A stretch of 64,000 nt of DNA from Escherichia coli (GTDB taxonomy: Bacteria; Pseudomonadota; Gammaproteobacteria; Enterobacterales; Enterobacteriaceae): assembly GCF_002854065.1 (NCBI RefSeq), contig NZ_CP024154.1. The stretch is one strand, 5' to 3'. Made by a program: the position numbers and the translations under genes. Below the pieces are notes generated by a model that searched no databases, was not told the DNA's origin, and worked only from the letters and a program-made list of their open reading frames with translations. This document shows, piece after piece, positions 3,620 to 29,965 of the stretch. Every line of letters begins with the position of its first letter. Position 1 is the stretch's first letter.

Positions 3620-3945
3620 CTCCGCTTTACCCGGCCATGCGGGGCATGGCCTTGTGGGTTTTCAGTTATGTGGCCTCAGCGCCGTGTGCGGGCTGTGCCG
3701 TGCCTCCATCGTAGCCGGGCTTCTGCGGGCGGGTTGCAAGGTAAGGTGAACCGCTGCGGTCACCCGGTCCCTCCTTCCCGTCTGCCGTGATTTTCCGGTC
3801 GTTCACCCGCTCAGATTTCGCGGTCTCACCCTTCAACTCCCGTCAGCCGTGCGCGTCAGGCTGCGGCTTCCCTTGCGCCCTTGCAACCCTGCAGGCCCGG
3901 CAAAGATGGAGGCACGGCACCGCCCGGTGTCGCGGAATATGTGAA
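3620..3945 (+). repeat. repeat family A copy 1: about 330-bp hairpin-rich element, putative single-strand promoter (Frpo/ssi-like)
   Basis: About 95 percent identical to 10567-10892; contains perfect hairpin GGCCATGC-GGG-GCATGGCC; ends about 20 nt before the klcA start. Confidence 0.6.
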
Positions 3946-5248: not shown

Positions 5249-5745
5249 CTTCGGCTCCCGGCTGCCTGGCGGCATCCGGTCGTCAGGCCCGACTCCGACG
5301 GGCAGCTGCTGGCGCACCCGCCAGTCTCCGCCGAACCCGCTGGCGCGGTTTCGGGCTGCCGCTACGGTCCGATGCGTGAAAACCCGGCTTGCAGCGACCG
5401 TTCCGGTCGCGCCGCCCCTGTCGCGCCGTGACCTGCGCTCCCTGCACACCTGACGGTGTGTGAGGAAACTGCGCCTGATGGCGCAGCAGTCCTCCCTCCT
5501 GCCGCCACTCCTGCGGCCTGTTTCCCGCTGTGGACTTTCCGGGGGGCAGACGTAACCCCCTCCCGTTCCATCTGTCCAGGGTGAGATGCACCGGCCACAA
5601 AATTTTTAGCCATGAACCCGGCAAAAAATTTTGCGTCCGCCCCCGGACAGCTGCCCCGTGAGGCGGTAAACGGGCCCCCATCGGAAAGGTCCACTGCGGG
5701 GAGAAACCCCTGTGAAGTGGACGGCAGGAGGAGCTTTCGCTCCTC
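5249..5745 (+). repeat. repeat family B copy 1: about 500-bp hairpin-rich element, putative single-strand promoter/ssi
   Basis: Near-identical to 11592-12090 and partially to 14681-15010; multiple perfect hairpins (GCGACCG-TTC-CGGTCGC, ACACC-TGAC-GGTGT); ends about 70 nt before ssb. Confidence 0.6.
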
Positions 5746-5814
5746 TGAAGGGGCACATGAACGTCCCGTCGCCGGTATCCGGTTTATCTCACATCTTTCA
5801 GTCAGGAGGTTCTT

Positions 5815-10566: not shown

Positions 10567-10892
10567 CTCCGCTTTTACCCGGCCATGCGGGGCATGGCCT
10601 TGTGGGTTTTCAGTTATGTGGCCGCCGTGTCGTGTGCGGGCTGTGCCGTGCCTCCATCGTAGCCGGGCTTCTGCGGGCGGGATGCAAGGTAAGATGAACC
10701 GCTGCGGTCACCCGGTCCCTCCTTCCCGTCTGCCGTGATTTTCCGGTCGTTCACCCGCTCAGATTTCGCGGTCTCACCCTCCAACTCCCGTCAGCCGTGC
10801 GCGTCGGGCTGCGGCTTTCCTTGCGCCCTTGCATCCCTGCAGGCCCGGCAAAGATGGAGGCACGGCACCGCCCGGTGTCGCAGAACATGTGA
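10567..10892 (+). repeat. repeat family A copy 2, putative single-strand promoter
   Basis: About 95 percent identical to 3620-3945; ends immediately upstream of the ardA SD. Confidence 0.6.
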
Positions 10893-11410: not shown

Positions 11411-11591
11411 TTTACTCCCCCGCTCCGGCGGGGGTATGGCCTGCCAGGCCGCCGGAAAACCCTGGCAGGCTTACGCCTGCCTGAAATGCAGGAGGGCCGC
11501 GCCTGCGGCGCTGCCCTTCCTGCCCGTCATGGTGTGAGGCATTTTTCTGTTATGTCGTTTCTGTTGTTCTGATTTCCGGAGGCGGGGACAC

Positions 11592-12090
11592 CTTCGGCTC
11601 CCGGCTGCCTGGCGGCATCCGGTCGTCAGGCCCGACTCCGACAGGCAGCTGCTGGCGCACCCGCCAGTCTCCGCCGAACCCGCTGGCGCGGTTTCGGGCT
11701 GCCGCTACGGTCCGATGTCTGAAAAACCAGGCTTGCAGCGACCGTTCCGGTCGCGCCGCCCCTGTCGCGCCGGAAACGGCGCTCCCTGCACACCTGACGG
11801 TGTGTAAGGCCACTGCGCCTGATGGCGCAGTTGTCTGCCCTTCCGCCGCCCCCCCTGCGGCCTGTTTCCCCGCTGTGGACTTTCCGGGGGCTGAAGCGGC
11901 CACAACACGTTTCAGCCGTCCAGGGGAGAGATGTACCAGCCACAAAACTTTTTGCCGCAGGCGTCAAAAACTTTTGCGTCTGCCCCCGGACAACTGCCCC
12001 GTGCCGTGGCAGTCGCTGCCCTATCGGAAAGGTCCACTGCGGGGAGAAACCCCGAAGAAGTGGACGGCAGAAGGGGCTTTCGCCCCTCCG
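11592..12090 (+). repeat. repeat family B copy 2, putative single-strand promoter
   Basis: Near-identical to 5249-5745; ends about 50 nt before ORF 12143. Confidence 0.6.
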
Positions 12091-12142
12091 GGGGAGCAAC
12101 CGGTCGGCCCGGCGACCTGATTCAGCAGAAGGAGACGTTTTC

Positions 12143-12577
12143 ATGACAGTCAGCAGCACGATTTCCGTTTTTTGCCGCGACGGGGTGTTCCGTACCGTTT
12201 ACTGCCACCTGCACGGTGAGCCGACCTGGAACGGTCGCATCCTGCATACCCACTATGCCACTGGTCAGCAGGCCGAAGCCCTGGTTGAACACGGTGATAT
12301 CCGTTGCCTCGGTCCCCGTTGCGACAAACCCGCCGGGCATACGCTTCAGAACCCGGTGGACGGTGTGACGGCTTATTACGGACGTGACAGTGGTTTCCGG
12401 ATGGACAGTGAGGCGCGTGAGTACCGTTCTTTCAGGGAGGCCATCGCCACGGAAAGCACTGAAGAGGTGCGCTTCCATTATGTGTTCATCGACGGCTACT
12501 GGAAGGTGATGTACCGCACGCCGGAAGGCTGGAAGATGAAGTCGCTTGCGCTGGCACTGCGCCGCTGTCCGAAATGA
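12143..12577 (+). CDS. hypothetical protein (144 aa) directly downstream of repeat B2
   Basis: SD AAGGAG 7 nt upstream of ATG; Cys/His-containing; rho-independent terminator hairpin downstream (about 12579-12606). Confidence 0.55.
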   Translation: MTVSSTISVFCRDGVFRTVYCHLHGEPTWNGRILHTHYATGQQAEALVEHGDIRCLGPRCDKPAGHTLQNPVDGVTAYYGRDSGFRMDSEAREYRSFREAIATESTEEVRFHYVFIDGYWKVMYRTPEGWKMKSLALALRRCPK

Positions 12578-12669
12578 AAAAAAGGCAGGGCGATAAACCC
12601 TGCCTCTCTCCGCCGCTGCTTCCCGGCCAGGAAGAGCGGCAGTCATCAACAACATAAGGAGAAATATTT

Positions 12670-12936
12670 GTGAGACCATCAATTATCTTTGCAACGGCTG
12701 AATATGTAAAGCGTCTGCGTGAAGAGTGCCTGCGGGAGAATAAACCCCTGCACCGCCATACCCGCTTCAGACGTCAGGAGCTGGCACAGGATGAGATTAA
12801 CCCGGACGTCCTGGCGATGAGCAGTCATATCGCCAGACGCTGCAGTAAGCAGAAGCGGGTGCGTATCCCCGCGATGAAAGCCAGCGAATGGGGCCACCTG
12901 CTCCGCGCGCTTGAAATTGAGCGGGTCTGCCACTGA
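12670..12936 (+). CDS. hypothetical small basic protein (88 aa, GTG start)
   Basis: ORF only; Arg/Lys-rich. Confidence 0.3.
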   Translation: MRPSIIFATAEYVKRLREECLRENKPLHRHTRFRRQELAQDEINPDVLAMSSHIARRCSKQKRVRIPAMKASEWGHLLRALEIERVCH

Positions 12937-13000
12937 TTAACCCTTGCCGTCTGCCTGTGCAGGCGGCAGGATACGTTCAGACATCTCACCAGGAGGAACC

Positions 13001-13951
13001 GTGAGTAAGAAGAAAAACACCACAACGCCCACGCCGCATGATGCCGCGTTCCGGTCGTTCCTGGCGAATCCCGACGTTGCCAGGGATTTTCTGGAACTGC
13101 ATCTTCCTGCGGAGCACCGGCAGTTGTGCGACCTGTCCACGCTGAAGCTGGAACCCGCCACCTTTGTTGAGCCGGACCTGCATCAGTACGCCAGCGATAT
13201 CCTCTGGAGCGTGAAAACCACCGGGGGTGAAGATGGTTATGTTTATACGCTCATCGAGCACCAGAGCACAGAAAATCTGTACATGCCTTTTCGCATGTTA
13301 CGCTACAGTGTGGCGGCGATGCAGAGACATCTGGAGCAGCACAAAACGTTGCCACTGGTGATTCCGGTGCTGTTCTATCACGGTGAGCGCAGCCCGTACC
13401 CGTACAGCATGAACTGGCTGGACTGTTTTGAGAATCCGGCACTTGCGGCTAAAATATACACAAAGCCGTTTCCGCTGGTTGATATCACTGTCGTTGATGA
13501 CAATGAAATCATGAACCATCGCCGGATGGCCGCACTGACGCTGCTGATGAAGCATATCCGCCATCGTGACATGATGGAGCTGCTGGACAAACTCCCGCAG
13601 GTCATGGTGGAAATTTCAGATGAACAGGTGCGTGTTCTGATTCATTACATCGTTAACGCAGGGGACTCTGTATCACCGGAATTTATGCGGGCGCTGGCTG
13701 AGCGTCTGCCGCAGCATGAGGATAAACTGATGACTATCGCAGAACGTCTTGAGCAAAAAGGTCGCCAGGAAGGCAGGATGGAAGGACGCATGGAAGGACG
13801 CATGGAAGGACGCATGGAAGGACGCATGGAAGGAGCGCTTGAAAAAGCCCTGGCTATTGCGTGCCAGCTTCAGAAAATGGGGATGACGCCGGAGCAGATT
13901 AAGCAGGCTACCGGACTTTCCGATGACGAACTGAAGAACATCACTCACTGA
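13001..13951 (+). CDS. Rpn-family (YhgA-like, transposase_31) PD-(D/E)XK recombination-promoting nuclease
   Basis: N-terminal YhgA-like motifs (HDAAFRSF, ASDILW, YTLIEHQS); SD CAGGAGGA before GTG 13001; C-terminal tail carries (EGRM)n repeat; terminator hairpin at about 13963-13990. Confidence 0.75.
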   Translation: MSKKKNTTTPTPHDAAFRSFLANPDVARDFLELHLPAEHRQLCDLSTLKLEPATFVEPDLHQYASDILWSVKTTGGEDGYVYTLIEHQSTENLYMPFRMLRYSVAAMQRHLEQHKTLPLVIPVLFYHGERSPYPYSMNWLDCFENPALAAKIYTKPFPLVDITVVDDNEIMNHRRMAALTLLMKHIRHRDMMELLDKLPQVMVEISDEQVRVLIHYIVNAGDSVSPEFMRALAERLPQHEDKLMTIAERLEQKGRQEGRMEGRMEGRMEGRMEGRMEGALEKALAIACQLQKMGMTPEQIKQATGLSDDELKNITH

Positions 13952-14013
13952 TGAGAACCACAAAGCCCGGCAAAATGCCGGGTTTTTTTGTCAGCAGGAG
14001 CAGAGCAAACAGC

Positions 14014-14196
14014 ATGACGATTGCAGAACGTCTTATACAGAAAGGTTTCGACGAAGGTTTTAAGAAAGGTGCGCTTGAAGTGGCGCGGGAAGCAGCCTGC
14101 CGGCTGCGGGATATGGGCTGGACGCCGGAACGGATTCAGGAGGCAACCGGACTTTCCGGTGAAGAACTGAAAAAGCTGTTTCCTGATGAGCAGTAG
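14014..14196 (+). CDS. free-standing paralog of the Rpn C-terminal tail domain (60 aa)
   Basis: MTIAERLIQKG...TPERIQEATGLSGEELKKLF aligns with the Rpn tail MTIAERLEQKG...TPEQIKQATGLSDDELKNI; weak SD; hairpin terminator downstream. Confidence 0.45.
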   Translation: MTIAERLIQKGFDEGFKKGALEVAREAACRLRDMGWTPERIQEATGLSGEELKKLFPDEQ

Positions 14197-14478: not shown

Positions 14479-14680
14479 AAAACACCTTTGAAAAAGTGAA
14501 AAAACTTCACTTTATTTTATCATCATAGTCACCAAGTCAGCGCGATAAATAAGAGTGAAAAAGTAAAGAAATTTCATTTTTTTTAGTTGTAGGTGTCGTG
14601 CTGTTTTCTCTGTTTTCACCTGTGCGGGAGTGGGCGTCAGTGACCACCACATGCCATTGTTGTGCCGTCGTTTTTCTTCA

Positions 14681-15010
14681 GTCGCGCCGGATGCGGCGCT
14701 CCCTGCACACCTGACGGTGTGTAAGGCCACTGCGCCTGATGGCGCAGCTGTCTCTGCCTGTCTGCCGCCGCACTGCGGCCTGTTCTCCGCAGACGGACTT
14801 TCCGGGGGTGCATACACGACCACATCCCGTTTCAGTCGTCCAGGGGAGAGATGTACCAGCCACAAAACTTTTTACCGCAGGCGTCAAAAACTTTTGCGTC
14901 TGCCCCCGGACAACTGCCCCGTGACGTGGTGAGCGTCCCCCGTCGGAAAGGTCCACTGCGGGGAAATCCCCGAAGACCCGGACGGCAGAAGGAGCTTCGC
15001 TCCTCCGGGA
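14681..15010 (+). repeat. repeat family B copy 3 (5'-truncated), putative single-strand promoter
   Basis: Matches the 3' two-thirds of copies B1/B2; ends about 45 nt before ORF 15057. Confidence 0.55.
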
Positions 15011-15056
15011 AATGACCTGGCTGACCCGGCAGTCGTGACGATGAGGAGACAATGTG

Positions 15057-15905
15057 ATGAATCAGACTTTACCCACTGCTGACCTGAATACTGCCGGCAC
15101 GACAGATGTTATTCTGTCTGTGGCTATCGACCGCATCATAGCGCAGCGTAACGAAGGTATTGCACTGTTCATGCAGGCGATGGAATGCCTGGCGACAGCG
15201 CGCAGGATTCTGCTCGATGCTTCCGGTGACATTTTTCTCTACGGGTTTGAAGACTGCGTGACTGACTCCGTTCGGTGCATGGATAAACCGGAAGAAGCAA
15301 AAAAGAATATCACCCGTCTTGCCGACCGGAAAATCTGGGATCGCCTGATGACGGATACTGGCATGTACACCTTCATGAGTTCATGCCAGCGTGATGAGTG
15401 GAACAGCCAGCTGATGAGCGACACCTGTCCTGAAATCACCCTGGACAATGTACTGGCAACTTTTCGCTATCTGAATGCCAGCAAGATGCGGACGTTTGAA
15501 CAGGGACTGATTGATGTCTGGCGGAAATTGTCATGGGATTACAGAACCAATAATCCCTGCCGTCTGGGCAAGAAAATCATTATTGAAAACCTGCTGTACC
15601 GCTGGAGTAACGGGCGTGTGACGCTGGACTGCAGCGGACGGGAGGCACTGGATGACCTGGTATGTCCGTTTTATCTACTGGAGGGACGCAACGTTCCTGA
15701 CTTCAGGAACAGCATCGGGGCGCAGTATGGTGAATATCTCGGGAACGGCGATAATGTCGGTAAGCTGTTAGAAGGGGAATATTTTACGGTGCGTGGCTAC
15801 CAGAAAGGGACCGTACACATTGTCTTTAAGCGTCCTGACCTTGTTGAAAAACTGAATGATATTATTGCACGGCATTATCCTGGTGCATTGCCGCCACGAG
15901 TCTGA
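15057..15905 (+). CDS. hypothetical protein (283 aa); oriT-proximal plus-strand gene of the leading region
   Basis: SD GAGGAG 7 nt upstream of ATG 15057; directly behind repeat B3; terminator hairpin at about 15911-15945. Confidence 0.55.
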   Translation: MNQTLPTADLNTAGTTDVILSVAIDRIIAQRNEGIALFMQAMECLATARRILLDASGDIFLYGFEDCVTDSVRCMDKPEEAKKNITRLADRKIWDRLMTDTGMYTFMSSCQRDEWNSQLMSDTCPEITLDNVLATFRYLNASKMRTFEQGLIDVWRKLSWDYRTNNPCRLGKKIIIENLLYRWSNGRVTLDCSGREALDDLVCPFYLLEGRNVPDFRNSIGAQYGEYLGNGDNVGKLLEGEYFTVRGYQKGTVHIVFKRPDLVEKLNDIIARHYPGALPPRV

Positions 15906-15989
15906 TTAAACAGAAAAGCCCTGGTATTTATGCCGGGGCTTTTTTTCTGTAATCATCATAATCTCAGAACACGATGTGACATTGTCACA

Positions 15990-16439: not shown

Positions 16440-16545
16440 GGCTATAATTGACCGAAAAACGGGACAGGATGTGGGAATGTCGGACCGCGCACGCGCACTC
16501 AGACATTCCCCACCTGGTCAGGGCTTTGCCCCGACACCCCGGTAA
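16440..16545. other. oriT: origin of transfer (oriT) with inverted repeats, immediately upstream of nikA
   Basis: GGGAATGTC...GACATTCCC inverted repeat flanking a GC-rich core, plus GGTCAGGGCTTTGCCCCGAC; position and orientation relative to nikA-nikB and the leading region. Confidence 0.65.
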
Positions 16546-25810: not shown

Positions 25811-26083
25811 GCGATCCCAGGGAGAGTGGGTGGCTCTGGCCCGGAGGAAGTCTCTTTTCAACTAACGTTACCAGAATATCGTTATATTCACCTGATCGCA
25901 ATCTGTTCGTTACAGTCTATTGTTCCGGGAGTAGCGATATCGCCTGAAACAAGTATAATCAGCAAGTTAGCCTTGTCTGGAGACTTACCTTCGCATCAAT
26001 CCATTTGCCGTATTTTCGTAAAATTCAACAGGAAATATTCAACGGGAGTGAGAGAACTGCTGTCCGGGGAGGAGGTACAGACG

Positions 26084-26117
26084 CAAAAAAACCGACTGGT
26101 GAGGCCGGTTTTTTTGC
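26084..26117. terminator. bidirectional terminator-like hairpin (copy 2)
   Basis: AAAAAAACCG-ACTGGTGAG-GCCGGTTTTTTT, nearly identical to copy 1. Confidence 0.5.
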
Positions 26118-26431
26118 GATTCCGGATCGAAGTTGGTAGCCCTGACCGGAAGATAACTGCCTATAACTGACTATGAAATAATACGGCTGAAATAATATTT
26201 CTGCAAGCACAGTATAAGTATATACTCGGTGTGTCAGCTTTGAGGCACGTTCTTTCCGGCATATCGTTCACCGGGATGAACAGGTTGCAAGTCCTGGCCA
26301 AAACATCAGGTGGTGCTGGTTTTGGTGCTCTGGCCGGAGAAGAACTGTCTATAACTGACACTATAGAAAACGTGGCGACAGGCAATGTAAGGGCAAACCA
26401 CGGTGTTCTTTCTCCATTGATGGAGAAGCGG

Positions 26432-29483: not shown

Positions 29484-29664
29484 GATGTGTCCTTGTTTTT
29501 TATTATTTTGCATTTCAGAAAATAACACGATGCCTGCAGCCCGGAAAACAGATGTGTGCACACGTAGTCACTTTCCGGCTTTATTTCTGTCCCTGACACA
29601 AAATACGTGGTGGCATGAAAAGGATTGTGGCGGACAGGAAAACGATTAGAATAGCGGCGGGCGC

Positions 29665-29958
29665 TTGAGGCTGTATGCCGAAAGCGTTTTGTGGACGGCA
29701 TGTAGCAGAAAGCCCCAGGCGATTTTTTTATCAATCAACCCAGGGCCCACTGTAATGCCTCAACAACATTATAGTAGCCCGATGACGGCCGAAAGGCAAT
29801 GGAGGGGCTGCGATGCCACAACGAACGTTTTTAATGATGTTAATCGTCGTCTGTGTGACGATACTGTGTTTTGTCTGGATGGTGAGGGATTCGCTTTGCG
29901 GATTTCGTATCGAGCAGGGAAATACGGTGCTTGTGGCAACGTTAGCCTACGAAGTTAA
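29665..29958 (+). CDS. pndC: pndC (mok-like) overlapping leader reading frame of the pnd locus
   Basis: Reading frame that overlaps and ends inside pndA in a different frame, as in hok/mok loci. Confidence 0.5.
   Translation: MRLYAESVLWTACSRKPQAIFLSINPGPTVMPQQHYSSPMTAERQWRGCDATTNVFNDVNRRLCDDTVFCLDGEGFALRISYRAGKYGACGNVSLRS
29690..29780 (-). ncRNA. pndB: expected position of PndB (Sok-like) antisense RNA; not delimited from sequence
   Basis: Placed by analogy to hok/sok architecture only. Confidence 0.25.
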
Positions 29959-29965
29959 ACGTTAA
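29813..29965 (+). CDS. pndA: PndA, Hok-family type I toxin (50 aa)
   Basis: MPQRTFLMMLIVVCVTILCFVWMVRDSLCGFRIEQGNTVLVATLAYEVKR; hairpin terminator at about 29975-30005. Confidence 0.85.
   Translation: MPQRTFLMMLIVVCVTILCFVWMVRDSLCGFRIEQGNTVLVATLAYEVKR

Follow-up and report, generated by a model that had tools for sequence, protein, structure and literature searches.

The DNA analyzed here, referred to as the window, is a stretch of 64,000 nucleotides from Escherichia coli (contig NZ_CP024154.1), and the elements under study are a repeated sequence, ssi2, and the gene that follows it, ygcA, which codes for a 144-amino-acid protein. Megablast searches with the region and with the first 20 kb of the window matched thousands of enterobacterial conjugative plasmids, the top match being the IncK2/Z plasmid pSTEC2018_607-b (97.5% over 20 kb). 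The gene order was identical across pSTEC2018_607-b, the IncI-gamma plasmid R621a and the IncI1 plasmid pESBL-EA11 (pESBL): methylase ... klcA-like antirestriction gene ... ssb, parB-like, psiB, psiA and ardA, followed by a 144-amino-acid hypothetical protein, an 88-amino-acid hypothetical protein, rpn ... DUF4942, mobC-like, oriT, nikA and nikB. From these matches and the annotated gene order, the window was recognized as the leading region of a plasmid of the IncI complex, IncK2/Z-like in type. Dataset S3 of Benz & Hall 2023 gives the order as ardA, ssi2, 'PndC', ygdA, ygdB (Rpn), t2, ..., ygeA, ssi1, ygfB (DUF4942), t1, yggA and oriT. The features that define the ssi2-ygcA locus and the direction of its transfer are the following:

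11592..12114, second full copy of repeat family B, with the ssi2 core at its right and a left extension of ~170 nt
11762..12090, minus strand, ssi2 core, 329 nt, a Frpo-type (class 1) single-stranded DNA (ssDNA) promoter and positional homologue of ColIb-P9 ssi2
11867..12045, minus strand, long imperfect hairpin of ssi2 on the transferred strand, with the loop at ~11959-11960
11927..11936, minus strand, unpaired 10-nt bulge GTACATCTCT in the 3' arm of the hairpin
11983..11990, plus strand, putative zone of transcription initiation, on the template arm and facing the CCCC immediately downstream of the bulge
12129..12134, plus strand, Shine-Dalgarno (SD) sequence AAGGAG of ygcA, 8 nt before the ATG
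12143..12577, plus strand, ygcA, 144 amino acids (R64 ygcA, the same gene as pESBL Hp16, O3K_25917, and often mislabelled 'PndC')
16464..16471, minus strand, nick-region motif CATCCTG|T (IncP/IncI-type) of oriT, in the yggA-nikA intergenic region

At an IncP/IncI-type nick region the plasmid strand is transferred 5'-first. The motif CATCCTG|T was found directly after the inverted repeat GGAATGTC...GACATTCC and ahead of nikA. Since it sits on the minus strand, the minus strand is the one transferred. The genes lie on the plus strand at coordinates below oriT and, therefore, the ygcA region arrives early in the recipient cell, as the template of the plus-strand genes. The ssi2 element is located in this leading region, on the transferred strand, and is oriented in such a way that the downstream gene is read from the transferred strand, as in class 1 elements.

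Repeat family B has two full-length copies in the window, 5249-5771 and 11592-12114, and a third copy at 14679-15009 that consists of the core only. The alignment of the two full copies, which reaches from 5249 to 5745 in the first, covers 500 nt at 87% identity (E 1e-171). An earlier note, made from the sequence alone, had placed the end of the second full copy about 50 nt before the ORF (open reading frame) 12143-12577, a fair description: the core ends at ~12090 and the full copy at 12114, 52 and 28 nt, respectively, before the ATG at 12143. The same note had likened this arrangement to those of ssb, klcA and ardA. The likeness held for ssb, which has a family B copy, but the repeat in front of klcA and ardA is another one, family A. 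The names ssi1-3 were introduced by Bates et al. 1999, and Samuel et al. 2024 (Supplementary file 4) supplied the reference ssi sequences used for comparison. The core at 11762-12090 shares 87.9% identity over 326 nt with ColIb-P9 ssi2 (AJ238399:4353-4678), 87% with ssi1 and 82% with ssi3, and its centre is 74% identical over 135 nt to ssiD (= Frpo) of F. The homology thus extends to the three ColIb-P9 elements and to F Frpo, that is, to the Frpo/ssi class 1. The two other cores in the window, 14679-15007 and 5418-5748, correspond to ColIb-P9 ssi1 and ssi3, each at 98.8%.

The nearly equal closeness of the window element to ssi1 (87%) and ssi2 (88%) arises because its hairpin tip, the loop and the A/T-rich stem, is of the ssi1 type and not of the ColIb-P9 ssi2/ssi3 type (11884-12013 compared with 14806-14929 and 5540-5670). 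The pattern of identities suggests that sequences have been exchanged among the dispersed ssi repeats of the plasmid. The GC-rich left extension of ~170 nt (11592-11763 and 5249-5417) is common to the copies in front of ygcA and ssb and is missing from ssi1, the core-only third copy. Because it is also present upstream of both Frpo copies of F, what functions as an ssi element may extend beyond the classical 328 nt. Long ORFs cross these GC-rich repeats, including minus-strand ORFs in 11550-12159 and a 251-amino-acid ORF at 11822-12577. These repeat-crossing ORFs, some of which databases carry as DUF1472 or as a 251-amino-acid 'PndC', are by-products of the repeat sequence and not genes.

When the minus strand from 11560 to 12142 was folded as DNA, the resulting structure had a free energy (dG) of -172 kcal/mol and a z score of -7.4, and none of 100 shuffled sequences was as stable. 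A consensus structure was then derived from an alignment of nine copies taken from the window, ColIb-P9, the IncI contig L012 (which carries a rare ygcA allele), F (three sequences) and Serratia. The hairpin was kept in this consensus, with compensatory changes in 11 of its 42 pairs, indicating that a long imperfect stem-loop, one of the characteristics of class 1, has been maintained in evolution. The bulge GTACATCTCT was unpaired in every aligned copy and its sequence was conserved as T[A/G]CAT[C/T]. We infer that the bulge is a pre-melted -10 element, TACATC (11935-11930), and that a weak -35-like element, GCGGCA (11958-11953), precedes it at a spacing of 17 nt, close to the hairpin tip. 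According to this folded model, ssi2 transcription would start at ~11983-11990 and run into ygcA, leaving a 5' untranslated region of ~155 nt.

The ssi2 promoter is already part of the literature. Wen et al. 2025 (PMC12672017) describe, for pESBL, six operons whose induction reached ~500-fold 15 min after mating; RNA sequencing showed that the operons behind ssi1-3 were strongly induced within 15 min of conjugation, starts were mapped by 5' rapid amplification of cDNA ends at all six ssDNA promoters, and ssi1-3 were assigned to class 1, the class with the highest transcription rates in that plasmid. The pESBL locus is ~95% identical to the window at the DNA level, the YgcA and Hp16 proteins differ at 2 residues, and in pESBL ssi2 (15171-15496 in sequence L004) ends ~50 nt before Hp16 (15546-15980). 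Promoter activity in the single-stranded state has been shown for this nearly identical DNA and, by analogy, would be expected of the window locus. The position of Hp16 as the first gene behind ssi2 points to its own induction. Taken together, the class of ssi2, its strand, its orientation, its position before ygcA and the data on the pESBL locus lend good, if indirect, support to the proposal in the earlier note that the ORF is expressed early.

The gene itself is real and conserved: ygcA is a probable early gene of 144 codons with the strong SD sequence AAGGAG, as the earlier note had it. Some databases carry a 251-amino-acid product that starts at an upstream in-frame ATG; however, the Met of the 144-amino-acid protein is the real start because the N-termini of the family align there and not at the upstream ATG. 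A tblastn search found ygcA in 2,013 PLSDB plasmids, in 1,971 of them at ≥95% amino acid identity. Comparison with four homologues, those of R621a, pESBL, L015 (79% identical DNA located outside an IncI backbone) and L012, gave dN/dS values between 0.07 and 0.23, indicative of purifying selection. The block ygcA-ygdA-rpn also travels outside IncI backbones.

These observations bear on a different view of the locus, in which ssi2 mainly primes or delays (as a roadblock) complementary-strand synthesis and ygcA, with no important early role, would be a passenger that the plasmid can do without. The original description of Frpo-type elements was as promoters of primer RNA (Masai & Arai 1997, as presented in citing papers), and a 2026 preprint reports that one F ssDNA promoter is a roadblock to conversion. 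In addition, transposon-insertion sequencing (Yamaichi et al. 2015, PMC4288162) gave Hp16 scores of 0.76 for non-essential, 0.24 for maintenance and 0.00 for transfer; like ardA, Hp16 was dispensable for transfer into laboratory E. coli K-12, and ArdA, PsiB and the other leading genes scored 1.00 as non-essential in the same study. A passenger, however, would be expected to decay, and ygcA is kept at ≥95% amino acid identity in ~2,000 plasmids under purifying selection, has a strong SD sequence, moves with ygdA and rpn outside IncI backbones and, in some IncI-type contigs, has had its body replaced by another member of the same family. We therefore regard a passenger role as improbable.

The replacement was found in the IncI-type contigs L012-L014, which carry a rare allele (L012 8001-8432) that codes for a protein 52% identical to YgcA in the same slot, with flanks that are ~94% identical. 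Homology in blastn was lost only between window positions 12198 and 12551, inside the ORF. The rare allele was absent from PLSDB at the tblastn threshold used. With breakpoints of homology inside the ends of the ORF, the change has the look of a cassette that was exchanged for another member of the family, and the fact that the body of the ORF can be swapped in this way argues against a meaningless passenger.

Many records label YgcA 'post-segregation killing protein PndC', a name that would make the ORF the mok-like frame of the pnd post-segregational killing system. The name in the source records is what speaks for this identity, and RefSeq now calls the protein hypothetical. The window has a real pnd locus of the hok/sok type at 29659-29962, 17 kb from ygcA:

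29659..29815, sok RNA, 124.7 bits
29813..29962, Hok/PndA toxin, 94% identical to that of pESBL

No toxin ORF overlaps ygcA, neither a sok RNA nor a Hok toxin was found near 12143-12577, and the family of YgcA extends to phages with no hok genes nearby. The sok RNA and the Hok toxin at 29659-29962 refute the PndC identity, to which we assign practically no chance of being correct. R64-style annotations name the gene ygcA. The erroneous label matters, as it has been repeated in at least two recent papers that interpret plasmid evolution experiments.

YgcA is a soluble alpha/beta protein with a mildly basic isoelectric point (pI 8.3), and therefore it is not a DNA mimic like ArdA. Searches with the protein and with two alignments found no Pfam match, there was no match in NCBIfam or PADLOC, and comparison with PDB sequences by phmmer or by profile produced no functional lead. 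A match to Acb3 involved 1 member of 75 at E 0.05 and was dismissed as being at chance level. PHROG 1987 (phrog_1987), of no assigned function, matched YgcA at E 5e-21. The match is full-length, with the shared motifs YCHxDG, GH, Y-x-RD and a Y/W near the C-terminus, although this allele lacks T3, D24, S54 and R83; YgcA is thus a member of this family, for which an exhaustive HMMER search found 1,983 cluster representatives at E≤1e-3. An AlphaFold2 model built on a 75-sequence alignment was of high confidence (predicted local distance difference test 96.2, predicted template modelling score 0.90) and consisted of a beta-hairpin at the N-terminus, two helices, a long loop and, at the C-terminus, a sheet of three strands accompanied by helices. 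The predicted fold matches no solved structure; matches in the AlphaFold database (AFDB) reached template modelling scores of up to 0.86 at 23-35% identity. No similarity in sequence profile or fold was found to the characterized anti-defence families ArdA, ArdB/KlcA, ArdC, Acr, Acb, Tad and others. The remote homology searches and structure prediction recommended in the earlier note have thus given a confident model and no assignable function, and neither homology to a known non-defence protein nor evidence that the ORF is not expressed was found.

The near-invariant residues of the family are T3, Y20, H22, D24, G25, G31, Y38, G51, S54, H66, Y79, R81, D82, R83, Y113 and W120. In the model, T3 starts strand 1 and H22 and D24 end the paired strand 2, so that the N-terminus probably lies next to the His/Asp pair. 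From their secondary-structure positions, T3, H22, D24, H66 and R81-D82 would form one polar pocket resembling an enzyme or ligand site. The earlier note had singled out the several Cys and His residues of YgcA and suggested testing for metal binding. The residues are there in this sequence, but across the family only C21 (79%), H22 (99%) and H66 (100%) are conserved; C55 and C60 of the CLGPRC motif, H24, H35 and H112 are not. The family therefore has no conserved Cys/His ligand set of the kind expected of a zinc-finger-like protein, and, for want of conserved Cys residues, the idea of metal binding based on this set is weak; a site of the His/Asp type would still be possible. The common IncI allele differs from the family at four near-invariant positions (T3V, D24H, S54R and R83S), where 90-96% of members have T, D, S and R at residues 3, 24, 54 and 83. 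The rare allele keeps T3, D24 and Y26 and, like the common one, has R54 and S83. These substitutions suggest that the common IncI allele has been retargeted or has lost catalysis.

The context of the relatives offers some orientation. A 43%-identical homologue in a Salmonella contig is beside two ArdC-type genes, and another one is between DNA ligase and dihydrofolate reductase genes in a phage-like contig. In a phage collection the family was present in Rak2-like jumbo phages, KVP40-like vibriophages and T4-like cyanophages. In KVP40 and S-PM2 the family member lies inside long arrays of small unidirectional hypothetical ORFs, which we take to be early-gene regions. By analogy, and by association only, this neighbourhood may be the company of early host-takeover or counter-defence genes. 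Domain fusions were few and heterogeneous (WYL_2, gp32-like and a SWIM-like tail) and gave no functional lead.

An anti-defence or establishment role, as proposed in the earlier note, is thus a plausible guess by association. That the gene, like ardA, can be lost without harm to transfer into a laboratory strain is consistent with such a role. We tentatively favour a version of it in which YgcA neutralizes a host barrier or helps establishment by means of the conserved pocket of the model, although we would not put it at even chances. A bolder version, to which we give somewhat less credit, is that YgcA is the plasmid member of a large unnamed family of phages, plasmids and integrative conjugative elements, with a fold absent from the PDB and a conserved Thr/His/Asp/His/Arg pocket, and that it represents a new class of early-acting counter-defence enzyme or signal sponge; the IncI allele would then be retargeted or catalytically dead, and the swap for a 52%-identical allele would be the trace of an arms race. 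We consider it rather unlikely that YgcA acts instead on plasmid nucleic acid, as an RNA- or ssDNA-binding establishment factor that, for example, protects or processes the incoming strand or the early transcripts. No functional study on ygcA, on PndC in leading regions or in anti-defence screens was found in the literature.

The end of ygcA and the genes beyond it were also inspected. The following features were identified:

12580..12675, minus strand, predicted AS-pc01-like antisense small RNA of ~95 nt with three stem-loops and a terminator at 12604-12584 plus U7
12682..12710, minus strand, sigma-70-like promoter TTTACA-17-GATAAT, 10/12 matches, which would start the RNA at ~12675
12670..12936, plus strand, ORF88 (R64 ygdA), next gene of the presumed ssi2 operon, pI 10.3
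12944..13951, plus strand, gene for an Rpn-family nuclease (ygdB), TIGR01784, 179 bits

The earlier note had credited ygcA with its own terminator. On the plus strand the hairpin in question, GGCAGGG-N7-CCCTGCC at 12584-12604, is flanked by A7 on its left and TCTCTCC on its right; read directly from the sequence, the stem is followed by U7 only on the minus strand, and the canonical terminator therefore belongs to the opposite strand. A terminator scan listed this hairpin on neither strand. The more convincing reading makes it the end of a predicted antisense RNA that may silence ygdA once the plasmid is double-stranded, although some attenuation of plus-strand transcription by the hairpin is possible. 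The predicted RNA folds into three hairpins (dG -48.7 kcal/mol, z -6.4), and the CUCCUU of its first loop is opposite the SD sequence of ORF88, forming an anti-SD loop. Positions 12675-12580 aligned end to end with the Rfam family RF02875 (AS-pc01) at 27.3 bits, E 0.005 in a search of 261 nt. Like AS-pc01, an antisense RNA of the IncF plasmid pHK01, the window RNA is laid out in three hairpins and has a CUCC anti-SD loop and a terminator. It overlaps the start of a leading-region gene, as does a site in pO26_2 (IncF) that matches the AS-pc01 consensus and covers the beginning of the gene that comes first in its leading-region operon. Nonetheless, it is at best a distant relative and its target gene, ygdA, is different. 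Another antisense RNA candidate in the window, at 26083-26170 on the minus strand, matches the Rfam AgrB family (RF02891; 47.7 bits compared with a gathering score of 40).

ORF88 had no family match; it adjoins ygcA in L012 and L015 as well. A correspondence of ygcA and ygdA with ygeA and ygeB of F, the genes behind Frpo1, was considered and rejected: YgeA of F has 95 amino acids, YgeB is a DUF932 protein, and BLASTP gave no alignment between ORF88 and YgeA. Deletion of ygeA in F lowers conjugation (PMC9849209). The rpn region (12944-14196) contains a six-fold EGRM repeat near the C-terminus of the protein and a DNA repeat, 13817-13938 / 14053-14174, and the 81-amino-acid ORF after rpn encodes the C-terminal domain of Rpn on its own (TIGR01784 positions 215-273). 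The pair resembles the long/short toxin-antitoxin arrangement described for the E. coli Rpn proteins.

Elsewhere in the window, repeat family A has two copies:

3626-3925, in front of the klcA-like gene
10574-10873, in front of ardA

Each copy holds an internal inverted repeat, and the family fits what Wen et al. 2025 describe for pESBL as 'class 2' ssDNA promoters. The DUF4942 gene (15054-15905) is proximal to oriT and behind ssi1. Its identification as M.EcoGIX was found to be wrong, since M.EcoGIX is YfbB, a 227-amino-acid methylase encoded at 1378-2061 (PMC4288162). M.EcoGIX (R64 YfbB) is the single-strand methyltransferase that protects pESBL from restriction.

The evidence is best accommodated by considering the locus as a zygotically induced unit, ssi2-ygcA, of the IncI-complex leading region. 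The nick at CATCCTG|T would send the minus strand into the recipient 5' first, with this region entering early as template. The single-stranded 329-nt core of ssi2 would then fold into a hairpin that mimics duplex promoter DNA, with the -10-like bulge already unpaired, and the host RNA polymerase would start on the arm that leads into ygcA. The transcript, with its ~155-nt 5' untranslated region and strong SD sequence, would direct synthesis of YgcA and probably continue into ygdA and rpn. On the principle established in the literature, synthesis of the complementary strand would iron out the hairpin and turn the promoter off, and in the duplex the predicted antisense RNA 12675-12580 would probably block the ribosome-binding site of ygdA. 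More tentatively, YgcA would act in the first minutes after entry, neutralizing a host barrier or aiding establishment through the polar pocket (Thr3, His22, Asp24, His66 and Arg81-Asp82), part of which is altered in the common IncI allele. We consider this overall scheme likely.

Several points weigh against it. The -35 and -10 hexamers each match the consensus at only 3 of 6 positions, and in a stricter consensus scan no sigma-70-like site on either strand of the repeat reached 8/12 matches. The ssi2 start site is derived from the geometry of the hairpin, and the induction of Hp16 itself from the position of the gene. The 27.3 bits of the antisense RNA are far below the RF02875 gathering score of 79, which places it outside that family. 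Finally, the common IncI allele is without four near-invariant residues, and this copy may not be an enzyme even if the family is.

The locus is of interest beyond this plasmid. IncI-complex plasmids are major carriers of extended-spectrum beta-lactamases, and the genes of the leading region decide the survival of a plasmid in its first minutes in a new host; ygcA is the first gene behind a promoter of the class with the highest transcription rates reported in pESBL. Its family reaches jumbo phages and marine cyanophages, with no Pfam entry and no function given, and the family as a whole would take its name from a ygcA phenotype.

In comparison with known systems, the closest counterpart is Hp16 of pESBL, which is the same gene with the same flanks and SD sequence as ygcA of the window and nothing of substance different, although the plasmid backbones are IncI1 in pESBL and IncK2/Z-like in the window. 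ColIb-P9 ssi2 occupies the same slot, after ardA and before ygcA, on the same strand and in the same orientation as the window element, and both it and F Frpo have the same 329-nt core as the window element, with the same long hairpin and a bulge that is likewise conserved and unpaired. Accounts of these class 1 ssDNA promoters are given in Masai & Arai 1997, Bates et al. 1999, Nasim et al. 2004 and Wen et al. 2025. Regarding the product, YgcA is without sequence or fold similarity to ArdA, KlcA/ArdB, PsiB or M.EcoGIX and is not a strongly acidic DNA mimic like ArdA. Nonetheless, it resembles them in being a small protein encoded on the same strand of the same region, behind an ssDNA promoter, which would be produced in a burst on entry and is dispensable in laboratory matings.

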